Shown: piece by piece, positions 4,008-39,437 of the stretch
Layout: each line of letters begins with the position of its first letter
Position numbering within the stretch: position 1 is the stretch's first letter
Sequence record: OL539451.1
Strand: one strand, 5' to 3'
Source: Escherichia phage vB_EcoD_Opt-719
Length of the DNA: 48,302 nt
Notes under the pieces: model-generated
Seen by the model: the letters and a program-made list of their open reading frames with translations, nothing else
The model's database searches: none
Told to the model about the DNA's origin: nothing
Translations under genes and position numbers: made by a program

Positions 4008-5106
4008 AATGCGTTATGACAGCGCTAAAGTAAAAGCCCGTTTCGATGAGAACGGGTTTCTAGTGGACACTCCAGTGGTTGCTCGTGTTGGTGTTCAAAC
4101 ATACTACATGCCAGATGGCTCAGAGCGCCGAGAGTTCCGACCAGCATCAGAGGTGTTTAAATCCGATTCCCTGCAAAGCTATCAGGGCAAGCCGCTTACG
4201 CTTGGTCATGTAGTTGTTAATTCAGATAACGCCAAGGATGTTGTAGTTGGAGCAGTATCTGGTGCAGCTATGCGTCAGGATTCTACAGTTGTCGTTCCTC
4301 TAACAGTTTACGATAAGCAGGCAATAGAAAAGGCTAAGTCTGGCGTTGCTGGTGAGCTATCGGTTGGCTATAACACTGTTGATATTGAGTCTCCTGGCTG
4401 GGGTAGTAACGAAACGGGTGAGTATAAGCTTGATGGAGAGTACGCAAGCCAGGATGATATCCCTGCTGATTGGGTACGCTTTGATGCCCTGCAAACAAAC
4501 ATCGTTGTGAACCACATTGCTCTGGTATATAAAGGCCGCGCGCAAGTAGCTAAACTGAATCTGGACGCGGAACAGGAAAACCCGTATACTGATACCGTTC
4601 AATCAAATAAAGAGGATAAATTGATGATTAAGATTAAACTGGATGGCGAGCAGGAGTTCGAAATCGCCCCGGAAGTTGCTAAGCACATCGAAGCTGTTAA
4701 AGCTGATGCAGAACAGGCAAAAGCAAAAGCTGACACCCTTGAAGCTGAGCGTGACGCACTGAAAGCTAAAGTTGATGGCATTCCTGCTGAAATTGAATCT
4801 GCCGTAGCGAAAGCTAAAGCTGATGCTGACGAACTGGCCGCTCTGGTTGCTACCGCTGCAGAAGCTGGCGTTAAAGCTGATGGTATGGATGCTAAAGCAA
4901 TCAAAGTTGCTTACGTTAAAGAAGTATCCGGCCTTGACGTTGCAGAGAAATCTGACGCATACATCGATGCGGCCTTTGATATCGCTAAAGATAGTGATAA
5001 AATGGCTGAAGTCCGCAAAGCAGTTGTTGCTGCGGATAAATCTGACGCTGCCGACGCGCCTAAGAAATTAGACCCGCGCGCTCGCCTCGCTAAATTGAAA
5101 AAATAA
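3997..5106 (+). CDS. putative head maturation protease/scaffolding protein
   Basis: 369 aa; globular N-terminal domain then long Ala/Lys/Glu/Asp-rich coiled-coil-like C-terminus; GAGGAGG RBS; between portal and capsid genes. Confidence 0.45.
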   Translation: MKSKMRYDSAKVKARFDENGFLVDTPVVARVGVQTYYMPDGSERREFRPASEVFKSDSLQSYQGKPLTLGHVVVNSDNAKDVVVGAVSGAAMRQDSTVVVPLTVYDKQAIEKAKSGVAGELSVGYNTVDIESPGWGSNETGEYKLDGEYASQDDIPADWVRFDALQTNIVVNHIALVYKGRAQVAKLNLDAEQENPYTDTVQSNKEDKLMIKIKLDGEQEFEIAPEVAKHIEAVKADAEQAKAKADTLEAERDALKAKVDGIPAEIESAVAKAKADADELAALVATAAEAGVKADGMDAKAIKVAYVKEVSGLDVAEKSDAYIDAAFDIAKDSDKMAEVRKAVVAADKSDAADAPKKLDPRARLAKLKK

Positions 5107-7577: not shown

Positions 7578-8558
7578 GGTCCTATCGGCCCAACGGGCGC
7601 CACAGGTCCGGCTGGCCCAAAAGGTGATAAAGGTGATGCAGGCCCAGTTGGCCCGGCAGGATTAACTTTCCGCGGGATGTACGACGCAGCTACTGCTTAC
7701 GTTAAAGATGATGTGGTTACATTCAATAACTCTAGCTGGTTTGCTACCGCCGCTGTGACCGGAGAGAATCCAGATGTTAGCGATTCCTGGGAGTTGCTGG
7801 CCGCGCAGGGCGCTCCAGGTCCGCAAGGCGCAACTGGTCCAGCAGGCCCAACTGGCCCGGCAGGCCCTGCAGGTATTCAGGGACCTCAGGGAGAGAGAGG
7901 GCTTCATGGTGAGCAAGGTCCGTCAGGCCCGCAAGGCTTGCAAGGTGCAGCTGGTCCAGTTGGACCTCAAGGCCCAGCAGGTCCTCAGGGTGAGCGAGGA
8001 ATACAGGGTCCGGTTGGCCCTCAAGGATTGCAGGGTGTAAAAGGTGATCCAGGCGTTAATTCTACATATACACTACCTTTAAAAAACTACCTTGTAATAG
8101 CCCTTAATGAAGAGGAGGGGGCGAGGCAGACATTCAGGGTGCCAGAAGACAGTTCGGGAGCTGAAATAGCTTTTGTGGTCAGAAATAAAGATTCTTCAAA
8201 CACTTCACCATCTGGAGTTTATGAGCTGGGATGTGGAGTGACTGGTACGGCTTCAATGCACTTTTCAGGTTGGATTATTAGTAACCTTAACCAACCAGAT
8301 AAAATAAGATCAGCCTCTATGCTAATTGCTTCCATGACTAATAGTCAGCGATACTTTACGCAGTTAGCAATAGGAACAAGGGGTGATCTTTTTAAAGGTT
8401 GCTTAACCAATCAGGAAACTGGTGAGCTATGGTACATTGAGGCTTTTGGTACCAAGCCAAGAGGGGCAGGGCAAACCGACTTAGGTAGACTCTCAGTTAA
8501 GATTGAGAAAAGAGTTGATACAGTAGTTGGAAGCTTAACAAAATTCCCAAGAGTTTAA
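7578..8558 (+). CDS. collagen-like repeat protein, downstream segment in same frame (possible readthrough product or pseudogene remnant)
   Basis: frame open immediately after the TAG; Gly-X-Y phase continues for 10 triplets, second collagen run, then ~200-aa C-terminal globular domain; first ATG at 7677. Confidence 0.5.
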
Positions 8559-15953: not shown

Positions 15954-15984
15954 TAAATGGGGCTTCGGCCCCTAAGGATTTTAG

Positions 15985-16335
15985 ATGGCATTGGAAACAT
16001 TTCGTTGGTGTACACAAATTCAAGGTGGATCAGCAAACTTCACCAACGCGAATAACGTTAGGGTGGTTAGCTTTGGTAATGGCTACGAGCAGCGTGGGAC
16101 TGGTGGCTATAGGACCAATAGGCGCACATACAATATGACCTACACTAACACTAACTGGAAGGAAGTGTTAGACTTCTGCTTTTCGCACATCATTACACCT
16201 TTTGCGTGGACAACTCCGCAAGGTGAACTTAAGCTGTTTGTTGTGGCTCAAGATAGCATCAGCGTCACACCAAATACTAAGGAAGTACAGACTGTATCAA
16301 TGCAGTTTGTAGAAGTTTTCACCTCGATGCAGTAA
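15985..16335 (+). CDS. putative minor tail protein (M-like)
   Basis: 116-aa ORF directly after tape measure gene; AAGGA RBS. Confidence 0.45.
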   Translation: MALETFRWCTQIQGGSANFTNANNVRVVSFGNGYEQRGTGGYRTNRRTYNMTYTNTNWKEVLDFCFSHIITPFAWTTPQGELKLFVVAQDSISVTPNTKEVQTVSMQFVEVFTSMQ

Positions 16336-16339
16336 ACTA

Positions 16340-16361
16340 AGACCCTACGGGGTCTTTTTTA
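16340..16361 (+). terminator. rho-independent terminator
   Basis: hairpin AGACCC-TACG-GGGTCT followed by TTTTTT. Confidence 0.7.
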
Positions 16362-16374
16362 TTGGAGAAATATC

Positions 16375-17139
16375 ATGGCAACGCCATTAAGCACTAAGTT
16401 TGAGAATCAATTACAAAGCTTGTTCCCTGGTGAGGTCGTTACGCTTATCGAGGTTGACGGAGGAAAGTTTGGCGCACCAGTTTACCGCTTTCATGGGGAG
16501 AATATCAGCTATACGCCAGAAGAAATCATGATGGCACAATCAACAGGTCAGCCACTGCCAGCAAAGGCAATCACTTTCCGTGGAGAAGAGTATGGCGCAA
16601 GGCCTTTTGGCATTCAGGGTATTAACATGACTTCTGACGGCAAGGCAAACAAGGTAACTCTGGTTGTATCAAACGTTGACCAGAACATCTCGGCGCTCAT
16701 CCGCACTTATAATGGTCTTGTTCAGGCTAAGGTTACTATCTGGATAACCCTTCGTGAGAATATTAATGAAGATGGCACCATTGCTGATGGGGATTACCGT
16801 AAGCTAGTTTACTTCATTGAGCGACCTAAGCAGGTTGACTACAACACGGCGTCATTTGAACTAACTAGCCCAATGGATATGGATGGTATCTACATTCCGG
16901 CTCGACTTGTTCAGTCTGTTTGTTATTGGGCACAGCGCAATCAGTACCGCTCAGGGAATGGATGTAACTACATGGGCAATCGATACTTCGATAAGGACAA
17001 CGTGCCTGTGACTGACCCATCCCAAGACTTCTGCGCCGGAACGGTGACCGCCTGTAAGTTAAGGTTTGGAGCTAACAATCAATTAGACTTTGGCGGTTGT
17101 GCGGCTGCAAGTCTGCAAGCGAAAGCCAACCAGAACTAA
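16375..17139 (+). CDS. putative minor tail protein (L-like)
   Basis: 254 aa; C-terminal cysteine cluster (CYW...C...C...C) reminiscent of Fe-S-binding L-type tail-tip proteins. Confidence 0.55.
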   Translation: MATPLSTKFENQLQSLFPGEVVTLIEVDGGKFGAPVYRFHGENISYTPEEIMMAQSTGQPLPAKAITFRGEEYGARPFGIQGINMTSDGKANKVTLVVSNVDQNISALIRTYNGLVQAKVTIWITLRENINEDGTIADGDYRKLVYFIERPKQVDYNTASFELTSPMDMDGIYIPARLVQSVCYWAQRNQYRSGNGCNYMGNRYFDKDNVPVTDPSQDFCAGTVTACKLRFGANNQLDFGGCAAASLQAKANQN

Positions 17140-17149
17140 GGAGTTGAAA

Positions 17150-17242
17150 ATGAAATTATTGTGTGCTTATTTGATATTTATATTTTTGTCAATGTTTGGA
17201 TTGTCATTAACATTAATTCTCAATATGGCTGGTGTTTTATGA
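17150..17242 (+). CDS. hypothetical small hydrophobic peptide (30 aa)
   Basis: AAGGAG RBS 6 nt upstream of ATG 17150; stop overlaps ATG 17239 (ATGA); MKLLCAYLIFIFLSMFGLSLTLILNMAGVL. Confidence 0.3.
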   Translation: MKLLCAYLIFIFLSMFGLSLTLILNMAGVL

Positions 17243-17985
17243 TTACACCTAAAGTTAAACTAGAAATATTTCGCCACGCCAACGAGGTTTACCCGCAGGA
17301 ATCTTGCGGGGTTGTAACTCAAAAGGGAATGGCGCAGAAATATCACAGGATTACCAATGTATCCAAAACTCCTGAGCAATCATTCATTCTTGACCCAGCA
17401 GAATTCATGGAGATTTCAGATAGTGAACAAATTGTTTACGTGGTTCATTCTCATACTGGTGACGGTGCCACTACTCGCCCTAGCGCTGCAGACATTTGTA
17501 GTTGTAATGAGTGCGAAATTCCTTATGTCATTGTTAGCATTCCCGAAGGCGATTTGCGAATTATTGAACCTAGCACAATGCCTTTAGCTGGCAGGCCGTG
17601 GGGTTTGGGCAGCTTCGATTGTTGGAGTTTGGTCATGGAATTTCACAAGCTACACGGCGTTAAGCTGAACGACTACCGAGTTGATTACCAGTGGTGGACG
17701 AATGAATACCCTGACAATATCTACGATGATAATTGGCAACTTGAAGGGTTTGAGTTAGTTCGAGGTAATGATATTCCCATTGGCTCAATGGTTATGATGC
17801 AGATTCAAAGCGAGAAGACAAACCACGCTGCAATCTACATTGGTGATAATAAAATCCTGCACCATTTATATGGTAAGATGAGTAAGGTTGATTTGTACGG
17901 TGATTACTATCGTGAGCGGACTGTGCGAATCGTAAGGCATAAAGATTTACCGGAGGATGCTGGTTATGACCCAGAACGTGATTGA
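17239..17985 (+). CDS. tail tip assembly protein (K-like; JAMM/MPN plus NlpC/P60-like)
   Basis: JAMM-like HSHTGDGATTRPSAAD and catalytic-Cys-like FDCWSL motifs; start at ATG 17239 (track GTG 17161). Confidence 0.65.
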   Translation: MITPKVKLEIFRHANEVYPQESCGVVTQKGMAQKYHRITNVSKTPEQSFILDPAEFMEISDSEQIVYVVHSHTGDGATTRPSAADICSCNECEIPYVIVSIPEGDLRIIEPSTMPLAGRPWGLGSFDCWSLVMEFHKLHGVKLNDYRVDYQWWTNEYPDNIYDDNWQLEGFELVRGNDIPIGSMVMMQIQSEKTNHAAIYIGDNKILHHLYGKMSKVDLYGDYYRERTVRIVRHKDLPEDAGYDPERD

Positions 17986-23273: not shown

Positions 23274-23378
23274 TTAGAAACCGTTAAAGTTTGAAGCCAG
23301 CAGCAGAACCCAAACGAAGAAGCTGGTAGTTGCTACGCCGAAGATTGCAGAGATTAAGTTAGTGGTTAAGTTAGTCAT
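23274..23378 (-). CDS. hypothetical small membrane peptide (34 aa)
   Basis: MTNLTTNLISAIFGVATTSFFVWVLLLASNFNGF; AAGGA RBS; stop abuts lipoprotein start; same minus-strand operon. Confidence 0.3.
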   Translation of the reverse strand: MTNLTTNLISAIFGVATTSFFVWVLLLASNFNGF

Positions 23379-24864: not shown

Positions 24865-25824
24865 ATGAGCTTCAAGGTTTACACTAACGATGAGTTAACC
24901 AACGAAGCCTACCATGAGGAGTCTGACCATGTGTCTGGCTCTGGTCTGGCTCACATCTTCTCAACTTGCCCAGCCGCATACAAATACGCTGAGCATGATG
25001 ATAGCAGTAAAGCGTTAAAGTTCGGTACATTGGCTCACACGATGGTTTTGGAGAGCTCTGTATTTGATGCGACATACTATCGTCAGCCAGCGCAGGAAGA
25101 GTTTGAAGACCTGATTACCAGTAAGGCTGCATTAGCAGCAAGACTGAAAGCGATGGGAATTGCTGGAACTTCTGGAAAGGATTACCCTGAATTAATGGAG
25201 ATACTGGCACTGACTGGTGAATCACTCAACGTATGGTGGGATATCCAGCGCTCTAGCGAGATTAAAGCAGAAGGCCGCGAGATTGTATCAGCTAAGGACT
25301 TTGACACCGTACAGGCGATGCGAGAGGTTTTGTGTGGAATTCCTGCTTACAATGCAATAGTTAACAGTGAAACCGCTCAGCGTGAACTATCAATTTTCGG
25401 TGAGATTAACGATTGTGGAGTGAAGGTAAGACTGGACCATGTTGATGTAGTTGGTGATGTTGTTTATATCCGAGATTACAAAACAACTAGCGACGCTTCT
25501 CCGTCAGGTTTCGGTCGCCTCGCCTTTAAGCATGGTTACTTGTTAAAGATGGCACTTCAACATGACTTATTTGTGCGAGCCTTTAATGAAAAGAGGCGAG
25601 TTGTTGTTCAGCTATTGGCGCAGGAAAAAAAGAGCCCGTACCTACCAATGTGCTACACGATAACAAAAGAACAGTTAAGGGTTGGTAGGTTGCAATACAT
25701 GAGTGCGCTTTCTACATACAAGCATTGTAAGAAGCTTGATATCTGGCCTGGGTATGGGTTCGGTGAAACAGAGATGGAATTGCAGATACCTGAATATGAG
25801 ATGAAGAAATATGAATTGGCATGA
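24865..25824 (+). CDS. putative PD-(D/E)XK recombination exonuclease
   Basis: 319 aa; DHVDVVGDVVYIRDYKTT (D...DxK-like) and downstream QHDLF motif; adjacent to Erf-like and SSB genes. Confidence 0.5.
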   Translation: MSFKVYTNDELTNEAYHEESDHVSGSGLAHIFSTCPAAYKYAEHDDSSKALKFGTLAHTMVLESSVFDATYYRQPAQEEFEDLITSKAALAARLKAMGIAGTSGKDYPELMEILALTGESLNVWWDIQRSSEIKAEGREIVSAKDFDTVQAMREVLCGIPAYNAIVNSETAQRELSIFGEINDCGVKVRLDHVDVVGDVVYIRDYKTTSDASPSGFGRLAFKHGYLLKMALQHDLFVRAFNEKRRVVVQLLAQEKKSPYLPMCYTITKEQLRVGRLQYMSALSTYKHCKKLDIWPGYGFGETEMELQIPEYEMKKYELA

Positions 25825-26266
25825 TATTTTTGAGTATATAGATGGATGCATAATATGGCGTGCTAGTGGTAATGTTGCTGGTTACAAACGAAAGGATGGT
25901 TATGTGATTGTGACAATAAATGGTAAGAAAATACTAGCGCATCGGATAATATACGAAATGAATAACGGAGATATAGAGCCAGGTATGCAAATTGACCATA
26001 TTGACCACAATCCATCAAACAACAGGATTGAAAACCTTAGGGTGGTTAACCACCAGGAGAACCAATCCAATAAGTCAAAGCAGTCAAATAACACTTCAGG
26101 GGTTACTGGCGTTTGGCTACATAAGAAATCTGGAAGGTTTGTAGCTGAAATAATGGTTGAAAAGAAGAAGATACATATAGGCTACTTTGATGACAAGCTG
26201 AATGCGGCAAAGGCTAGAAAGGATGCTGAAATTAAGTTTGGGTTTCATAAAAATCATGGAAAATAG
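25811..26266 (+). CDS. HNH homing endonuclease with AP2-like DNA-binding domain
   Basis: HNH motif DHIDHNPSNNRIENLRVVNHQEN; C-terminal GVTGVW...GRFVAEI...IHIGYF AP2-like segment; inserted between exonuclease and Erf-like genes. Confidence 0.8.
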   Translation: MNWHDIFEYIDGCIIWRASGNVAGYKRKDGYVIVTINGKKILAHRIIYEMNNGDIEPGMQIDHIDHNPSNNRIENLRVVNHQENQSNKSKQSNNTSGVTGVWLHKKSGRFVAEIMVEKKKIHIGYFDDKLNAAKARKDAEIKFGFHKNHGK

Positions 26267-38407: not shown

Positions 38408-38793
38408 TTATTGCAACTGTATTACTGACTGGTTGCTCTGGCCTATCGGCTATTTCTGATTTTTTACCAGCAAAGGATGGCGTCGAGGCAACAGCGCAGG
38501 TGGGTGAATCTAACCAGAAAACAGGGGTTGGGCTATCAAATCAGACAGACAAATCTAGCTCTATAGAAAGCGATATGCGCAACTCAACTAACAGAGACGT
38601 GGACTCATCAAGCCAGAAAAAGACCGCCGCTACTGGCCTATCAGCTAACACAATAACGGCTGAAAAGATTGAAATTCATAGTACTGAAAACTCAGGGGTA
38701 GATTCATTAGTCTGGGGTATTCTTGCCGGGCTAGTTTCTTGTTTGTTAACTTACTTCACTTTAAGATTTGCAGGAAACAAAAAAGGAGCCTAA
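38389..38793 (+). CDS. unimolecular spanin-like protein (lipoprotein with C-terminal TM)
   Basis: N-terminal lipobox LLTGC and C-terminal TM helix LVWGILAGLVSCLLTYFTL; last gene of lysis cassette. Confidence 0.65.
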   Translation: MRLGIVIIATVLLTGCSGLSAISDFLPAKDGVEATAQVGESNQKTGVGLSNQTDKSSSIESDMRNSTNRDVDSSSQKKTAATGLSANTITAEKIEIHSTENSGVDSLVWGILAGLVSCLLTYFTLRFAGNKKGA

Positions 38794-39338: not shown

Positions 39339-39437
39339 AAATCACCCATAAATTAATGATAATATGCAAAACAAAATACTCATCAAATGAATAGGAATTA
39401 GAGAGTACATGACAAAATTTTCAACCTTTCTCATAAA

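Follow-up and report, generated by a model that had tools for sequence, protein, structure and literature searches.

In one lineage of T1-type phages, 95 nt of T-rich DNA separate the Shine-Dalgarno (SD) sequence of the tail tip assembly gene K from its start codon and carry a 30-codon open reading frame for a strongly hydrophobic peptide. This frame, micro-ORF A, is probably a coupled accessory micro-cistron that is translated, as judged from its layout and signals. The full reading, to which we assign a probability of about 0.5, is that micro-ORF A is a moron-like accessory micro-cistron that would be translated off the SD captured from K, with K following by termination-reinitiation. The components of this reading differ in strength: translation of micro-ORF A is quite likely, and a function of the peptide is tentative and falls somewhat short of an even chance. 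We infer from the sequence the coupling of K to micro-ORF A and the insertion of the peptide into a membrane.

The L|K junction and its 95-nt insert

The window, by which we mean the whole 48,302-nt stretch of phage DNA that was analysed, belongs to a Rogue1-like, T1-type phage (Drexlerviridae, Rogunavirinae). Its tape measure gene is followed by tail genes in the order M-L-K-I-J, represented by Phage_min_tail, Phage_tail_L, K, Lambda_tail_I and a 1131-aa J-like ORF. The L-like tail tip gene (16375-17139, + strand, 254 aa) matches Pfam Phage_tail_L with E=2e-45, is named a minor tail protein in the annotation of an identical record, and ends in a TAA (17137-17139) that overlaps the SD. The K-like tail tip assembly gene (17239-17985, + strand, 248 aa) combines a JAB/MPN domain with an NlpC/P60 domain; in the form that starts at ATG 17239, Prok-JAB is matched at residues 5-101 (E=1e-12) and NLPC_P60 at residues 120-233 (E=2e-14). 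By both domain content and synteny, the downstream gene is assigned to the lambda gpK-like tail tip assembly proteins, and the placement of the micro-ORF between L-like and K-like genes in the first-pass annotation is borne out.

The insert occupies positions 17144-17238 (+ strand), and BLAST alignments of the window to Rogue1 and Sd1 break exactly there. It replaces a 5-nt spacer between SD and ATG that is found in the relatives. Among 22 related loci, which are those whose L|K junction was readable, the gap between L and K is either 9-13 nt or ~500-620 nt, and a gap of 99 nt is confined to the present lineage. The restriction of this gap to one lineage, together with the BLAST break, places micro-ORF A within a lineage-specific insert. 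In the short-gap relatives TAAGGAG, or a close variant of it, is followed by a few bases and then by the K ATG, and this very TAAGGAG precedes the K ATG by 5-6 nt in phages such as Rogue1 and JK06. Because of this arrangement in the relatives, the AAGGAG of the window (17138-17143, + strand) is identified, on comparative grounds, as the ancestral SD of K, captured by the insertion. The locus is a clean natural case of a start codon parted from its SD by an insertion. We suggest that the insertion is tolerated because it gives the old SD a new cistron, and the old gene a new SD-like element together with a stop/start overlap.

The junction is a known hotspot for indels and homing endonucleases; in the long-gap relatives (~500-620 nt), the annotated records examined place an HNH homing endonuclease in the gap. 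A sensitive search of 50,697 phage records, which gave 672 matches, found no insert of ~100 nt at L|K; the junctions among these matches are short or overlapping, or hold large inserts (HNH genes, a ‘Rha protein’ in phiA2-1 and a hypothetical protein in SCS31).

The insert has an A+T content of 76%, against 55% for the genome, with T at ~47-49%, and is the most T-rich of all window-specific segments. It matches no other part of the genome over more than 11 nt, its flanks show only chance-level matches of 9-13 nt as candidates for target-site duplications or inverted repeats, and it has no nucleotide similarity to the HNH inserts of the loci compared. The region is 100% identical in PhleaSolo, Sadiya and ‘Opt-79’, and one further contig is base-for-base identical; it comes from the Logan assembly of a different run, whose SRA accession is close by and whose source is likely the same laboratory. 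The assembly of the same sequence four times from isolates of one laboratory, for which two sewage sites are listed, indicates that the phage is viable.

Homologs of the insert or of its peptide were absent, outside these identical isolates, from all collections searched. Against 50,697 phage records, blastn of the insert (with distant settings) and tblastn of the peptide gave no match beyond the identical isolates; tblastn of the peptide gave none in plasmids, and blastn of the insert gave none in 5,426 E. coli genomes. IMG/VR, JGI metagenomes and GTDB genomes were scanned for an exact 41-mer and for two degenerate, codon-aware patterns, and nothing but the identical isolates came back. At the protein level, an exhaustive phmmer search of 1.84 billion representatives gave no match to the peptide, Pfam and PHROGs gave none either, a word-indexed search of a 5.8-billion-cluster protein index gave none for the 50-aa ORF, and an exact-sequence look-up found no protein on record with MKLLCAYLIFIFLSMFGLSLTLILNMAGVL, the product of micro-ORF A. 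Independent copies of the insert were also sought by way of K-protein look-ups and metagenome loci, which yielded only the identical sequence or relatives without the insert. Micro-ORF A is an orphan among the small membrane-type micro-ORFs encoded by phages, which are themselves of a known kind.

We also note some features of the records and of the neighbouring junction. The records OL539467 (Sadiya) and OL539453 (‘Opt-79’) list Serratia marcescens and Klebsiella hosts, and the announcement describes isolation of these phages on E. coli BW25113 (PMC9119101). The size of Sadiya is 48,403 bp in the paper (PMC9119101) versus 48,303 bp in the record. The M|L junction (16336-16374 of the window) is a second indel hotspot of the tail operon. 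Its gap is 29-46 nt in most relatives, and in the window it has a terminator-like hairpin at 16339-16356; in Rogue1, Sf12, AHS24 and phiKP26 the gap is 321-347 nt, and that of Rogue1 (L002, 1178-1500) holds a 43-aa soluble ORF (Rogue1_0034).

Layout, peptide and translation signals of micro-ORF A

Micro-ORF A (17150-17242, + strand) starts at ATG 17150, which is separated from the AAGGAG at 17138-17143 by the 6-nt spacer TTGAAA, and stops at a TGA (17240-17242) that overlaps the K ATG at 17239 within an ATGA (17239-17242). Both the ribosome binding site and the overlap with K had been read correctly in the first-pass annotation. The peptide MKLLCAYLIFIFLSMFGLSLTLILNMAGVL has a GRAVY of 2.01, and its best 19-residue Kyte-Doolittle window of 2.34 is well inside the transmembrane range; one membrane-spanning helix is predicted. 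The earlier description of the peptide as entirely hydrophobic is nearly right, in that a run of 22 residues is free of charged and amide residues, and needs amendment for a single charge, that of K2. As read from the sequence, the lipobox L-[AS]-[GA]-C that marks the Cor/Llp-type superinfection-exclusion lipoproteins is absent; the only Cys is residue 5, which comes after K-L-L with no h-region before it.

The duplex of AAGGAG with the 3' end of 16S rRNA has an energy of -10.7 kcal/mol, and ~6% of random positions reach -8. A moderate SD-like element (GGUG), GGCTGGTG (17227-17234, + strand), is contributed by the 3' end of the insert and lies 4 nt upstream of the K ATG. Its energy is -7.2 kcal/mol, alongside -6.1 to -7.4 for the K starts behind HNH inserts in three relatives, and it is weaker than the SD of K in the short-gap relatives, which ranges from -8.3 to -12.6 kcal/mol. 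Since K has this moderate SD of its own, its dependence on coupling may be partial or unneeded. The stop/start overlap lies on one transcript, as expected of a coupled pair, with no terminator-like site between L and K, and no promoter-like site was found upstream of micro-ORF A. The RNA around micro-ORF A is less structured than shuffled controls (z = +1.33).

These features suggest the following mechanism. The 95 nt of T-rich DNA entered between the K SD, which overlaps the L stop, and the K ATG in one Rogue1-like lineage, which put the captured strong SD at a distance of 6 nt from an ATG of the insert. Ribosomes that leave L, or that load de novo on the unstructured A/U-rich stretch, would translate the 30-codon cistron, as would follow from the position of the captured SD. 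The product would be a single-pass membrane-type peptide, probably with its N-terminus in, with Lys2 followed by an apolar helix of ~22 residues. The cistron would end at the UGA that overlaps the K AUG (AUGA), and K would be made by termination-reinitiation, helped by the moderate GGUG element at the 3' end of the insert. As K would still be made in this way, the essential tail operon L-K-I-J would not be interrupted.

Stop/start overlaps of the AUGA type couple cistrons in E. coli trpB-trpA and in many phage late operons. The arrangement described here is alike in that the upstream stop overlaps the downstream AUG on one transcript, and differs in that the upstream cistron is a 30-codon insertion that has captured the SD of the downstream gene. 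Phage morons, a concept of Hendrix and Juhala, include the membrane protein gp15 of HK97, which is encoded among tail genes. Like a moron, micro-ORF A is an additional gene, confined to one lineage, that lies among conserved structural genes, deviates in composition and encodes a membrane-type product. This is in contrast to the lack of its own promoter and terminator, in place of which it rides on the translation signals of the operon; micro-ORF A is also several-fold smaller, and its phage is virulent. The type I toxins and small membrane regulators of E. coli (Ibs, ShoB, TisB, KdpF, AcrZ) are proteins of 19-50 aa with one helix. Micro-ORF A resembles these in length and composition only, being embedded in a tail operon, and homology to type I toxins was found neither in E. 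coli genomes, nor in plasmids, nor in protein libraries; no Rfam sRNA was matched, and no sign of an antitoxin RNA context was seen.

Hydrophobic micro-ORFs at other junctions

Comparison of the whole window with Rogue1 reveals two more window-specific segments of ~90 nt, each of which is a hydrophobic micro-ORF in a tight junction. Micro-ORF B (586-690, + strand, 34 aa, MKILKSILAYYVLSCMAFTSGFLIGVIIGAIKNL) lies between terS (74-589) and terL (687-2255), and ATGA overlaps at both of its ends link terS, B and terL. Rogue1 lacks it, the records of Sadiya and PhleaSolo list it as a hypothetical protein, and a 52%-identical peptide is encoded directly upstream of terL in the ‘Campylobacter’ phage A110b (Braunvirinae). 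B starts with a copy of the terL start (MK.L) and ends with a copy of the terS end (K.L-stop). Micro-ORF C (39342-39434, - strand, 30 aa, MRKVENFVMYSLIPIHLMSILFCILSLIYG) is flanked by genes of 527 aa and 111 aa and is also present, though unannotated, in Sd1 (90% aa identity) and phiEB49 (83%). Seven of the 10 nt differences between C and its Sd1 counterpart fall at third codon positions (binomial p = 0.02), and three conservative replacements result, a substitution pattern that we read as a coding signature. C is bracketed by the direct repeat GGGTGATTTATG; the repeat that phiEB49 retains, from the 3' end of the upstream gene, is longer. The GenBank records that were inspected lack both the 30-codon ORF of the L|K junction, which is left without annotation in PhleaSolo, and at least one of its conserved siblings, C. 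For annotation, the practical yield is thus a corrected K start together with several micro-ORFs that had gone unannotated.

B and C are both flanked by a duplicated host junction, so that the flanking alignments overlap by 8-12 nt in the other genome. In contrast, the ends of micro-ORF A carry no duplicated host junction, and at its site the other genomes show a gap of +5 to +9 nt with no overlap. A further difference from B and C is that the peptide of A had no match in another phage lineage anywhere searched.

In an all-against-all survey of indels in six Rogunavirinae genomes, the small inserts that fall between two tightly spaced genes of the same strand are, without exception, hydrophobic ORFs of 27-37 aa in the sense direction. 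These inserts are A, B, C and two from Sd1, namely gp52 (37 aa; 38549-38662 of the Sd1 record), which lies between terS and terL with 4-nt overlaps and is unrelated in sequence to B, and a 27-aa junction ORF (MFEIIICLAIPVVLWIILDYVAAKKEY; 8028-8111 in reverse-complement coordinates). Inserts of 145-220 nt in the same survey hold soluble ORFs of 50-70 aa. All five junction inserts are T-rich on the sense strand, two of them (B and C) are conserved at the protein level, and no sequence similarity was found among the five micro-ORFs. Micro-ORF A shares the traits of the group, being a sense-strand ORF within the range of 27-37 aa, with one hydrophobic helix, between tightly linked genes, and the distribution of these ORFs is sporadic.

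The more interesting lead lies in this pattern across the class: five hydrophobic micro-ORFs, unrelated to one another, are found at operon junctions that also serve as hotspots for homing endonucleases. A bolder reading, which we consider unlikely, takes micro-ORF A as a very young, possibly de novo-born gene for a membrane micro-protein and as one case of an as yet undescribed habit of the Rogunavirinae, whereby unrelated, convergent transmembrane micro-cistrons of 27-37 aa settle in the coupled packaging and tail junctions that homing endonucleases also use. The micro-cistrons would then be kept for a membrane-directed accessory function or for altered homing target sites. Genes are known to emerge de novo from T-rich sequence that yields transmembrane-like ORFs (Vakirlis et al. 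2020, PMC7005711). Micro-ORF A is like the membrane peptides described there, and like the intergenic smORFs of enterobacteria (PMC11188072), in being a tiny, orphan, T-rich and transmembrane-like ORF; those cases are yeast or bacterial chromosomal ones, and a de novo origin of micro-ORF A is a possibility only.

Several observations concern the same junctions or similar ORFs. The window holds another hydrophobic ORF, of 34 aa, at 23274-23378 (- strand; MTNLTTNLISAIFGVATTSFFVWVLLLASNFNGF), which is preceded by an SD, has a GRAVY of 1.19 and lies downstream of the J-like gene; it is located in a window-specific region and has a strong frame preference by codon usage. In Rogue1 (L025, ~4275-4300) terL is annotated from an internal ATG (MTPAEKL...), a start that is probably too short; read from an upstream ATG, whose ATGA includes the stop of terS, the protein has MKTLVWEEMTPAEKL, in agreement with the N-terminus of terL in the window, MNTLAWEEMTPAEKL. 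About 20 phage records named for Campylobacter jejuni (MG065688 and others) are Drexlerviridae, and A110b, the one examined, is marked UNVERIFIED.

Other readings of the insert and the start of K

The strongest competitor to an accessory micro-cistron, possible though doubtful, is that the insert is junk that arrived by illegitimate recombination or replication slippage, and that the peptide, if it is made, has no selected function. The ORF would then be open to the K start by survivorship, insertions that break K being lethal, and its hydrophobicity would be a by-product of T-richness. The orphan status of micro-ORF A, its zero sequence variation and the missing junction duplication, which its conserved siblings possess, are what such filler would show. 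The composition of the insert (49% T) points the same way: the second of its open frames, which is the K frame and is open across the whole insert, has a GRAVY of 1.2, and as both open frames of this T-rich DNA are hydrophobic, the hydrophobicity of MKLLCAYLIFIFLSMFGLSLTLILNMAGVL is partly compositional. When the insert is put through 20,000 dinucleotide shuffles, an ATG turns up 4-10 nt after the SD in 30% of them, a frequency that suits filler. The full architecture, in which this ATG also opens a frame that ends at the K start, occurs in 2.1%, and a GRAVY of at least 2.01 in 2-4% of the stop-free shuffled frames, which speak against it; two open forward frames are seen in 1.3% of the shuffles. 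Micro-ORF A is thus moderately more than chance, and a chance of ~2% for its architecture is not negligible given that the whole genome was scanned for oddities. Also against filler, K has its own SD, and survivorship does not obviously need an open upstream frame; moreover, all five junction inserts are hydrophobic besides being T-rich in the sense direction, and two persist as peptides. A codon-usage likelihood gives no preference to the frame of micro-ORF A over the K frame (delta -2.1), as filler would predict; in calibration a score near zero was likewise obtained for the copy of B that is conserved in A110b, and since the test mainly measures stops in the other frames it is treated as uninformative.

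The first-pass annotation had called micro-ORF A a coupled micro-ORF, and the stop/start architecture on which that description rests is real; the orphan peptide is a candidate for a functional gene product. The lineage-specific insertion at an indel hotspot and the moderate SD kept by K had escaped that annotation. A functional peptide would extend the poorly charted set of phage membrane micro-proteins, and a functionless one would make the locus a snapshot of the material from which genes can be born de novo in T-rich DNA.

Two further readings are improbable. The insert could be regulatory and non-coding, serving as an internal promoter for K-I-J or as a structured RNA. It is AT-rich and has one weak sigma-70-like match, TTGTCA-16-TAACAT (17186-17213, + strand), and the annotators of AHP42 put a promoter in the corresponding HNH insert. 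This match is 9/12 and not above chance, as one such site was found in 2.4 kb where 4.5 are expected from shuffles; furthermore, no relative needs a promoter at L|K, and a structured RNA fits poorly with an insert region that is less structured than its shuffles and matches nothing in Rfam with an E of 1 or lower.

The insert could, with similarly low probability, be a homing scar, namely what decay has left of an HNH gene, or DNA whose insertion is maintained because it disrupts an HNH target site. The HNH genes of Drexlerviridae (AHP42_22, RTP, Sf12 gp43) occupy the same L|K junction in many relatives with the same presence/absence polymorphism, and their 3' ends likewise give K an SD. Decay of such a gene is suggested by Sf12, in which the L|K HNH gene (25494-25971 of its record) is split into two ORFs, gp43 and gp42. 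The terS|terL junction offers a parallel, as it holds either an HNH gene (AHP42) or a micro-ORF (B in the window, gp52 in Sd1); AHP42 has HNH genes at both terS|terL (562-1077) and L|K (15979-16467), the junctions that hold B and A here. However, the insert measures 95 nt against 500-620 nt, has no similarity to the HNH inserts in nucleotide or peptide sequence, and is T-rich on the sense strand, where the HNH genes at this junction are A-rich. Micro-ORF A gave no Pfam or PHROG match to an HNH, GIY-YIG or LAGLIDADG domain, for which 30 aa are too short.

The remaining reading makes the insert a part of K. The longest ORF in the K frame begins, as the first-pass annotation had reported, at a GTG (17161-17163, + strand), and that annotation had set this start against the micro-ORF as an either/or. 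The alternative is resolved for ATG 17239, and the start of K is settled at this codon, short of protein sequencing, by several lines of comparison. A start codon homologous to that at 17239 is used in 22/22 related loci, where K begins with M-L/I-T-P-K, as compared with M-I-T-P-K here, and none of the 22 has the upstream sequence from which the extension would be formed. In the short form the JAB domain starts as early as residue 5, and the curated GenBank record of PhleaSolo, an identical phage, has the short form from ATG 17239. The GTG itself is located inside the insert, 17 nt from the AAGGAG, with no SD at a usable spacing, and a strong competing SD and ATG lie 11 nt upstream of it in another frame. 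It is hence very improbable that the insert belongs to K and lengthens the protein to 274 aa by a hydrophobic N-terminal extension of 26 residues; the arguments for this reading are the open K frame across the insert and the preference of automatic callers for the longest ORF.

Automatic gene callers have produced the 274-aa form from GTG 17161 in a public collection, and the open reading frame track of the window shows the same start; both are explained by callers that maximise length, through which the wrong protein has spread into public protein sets. The gene next downstream raises a similar point about its start. The I-like gene, in the region 17957-17985 of the window, overlaps the end of K by 20 nt, and its start is probably ATG 17966, which has an SD of -9.5 kcal/mol and is the start used in PhleaSolo, rather than the first ATG at 17957, whose SD is -2.6.
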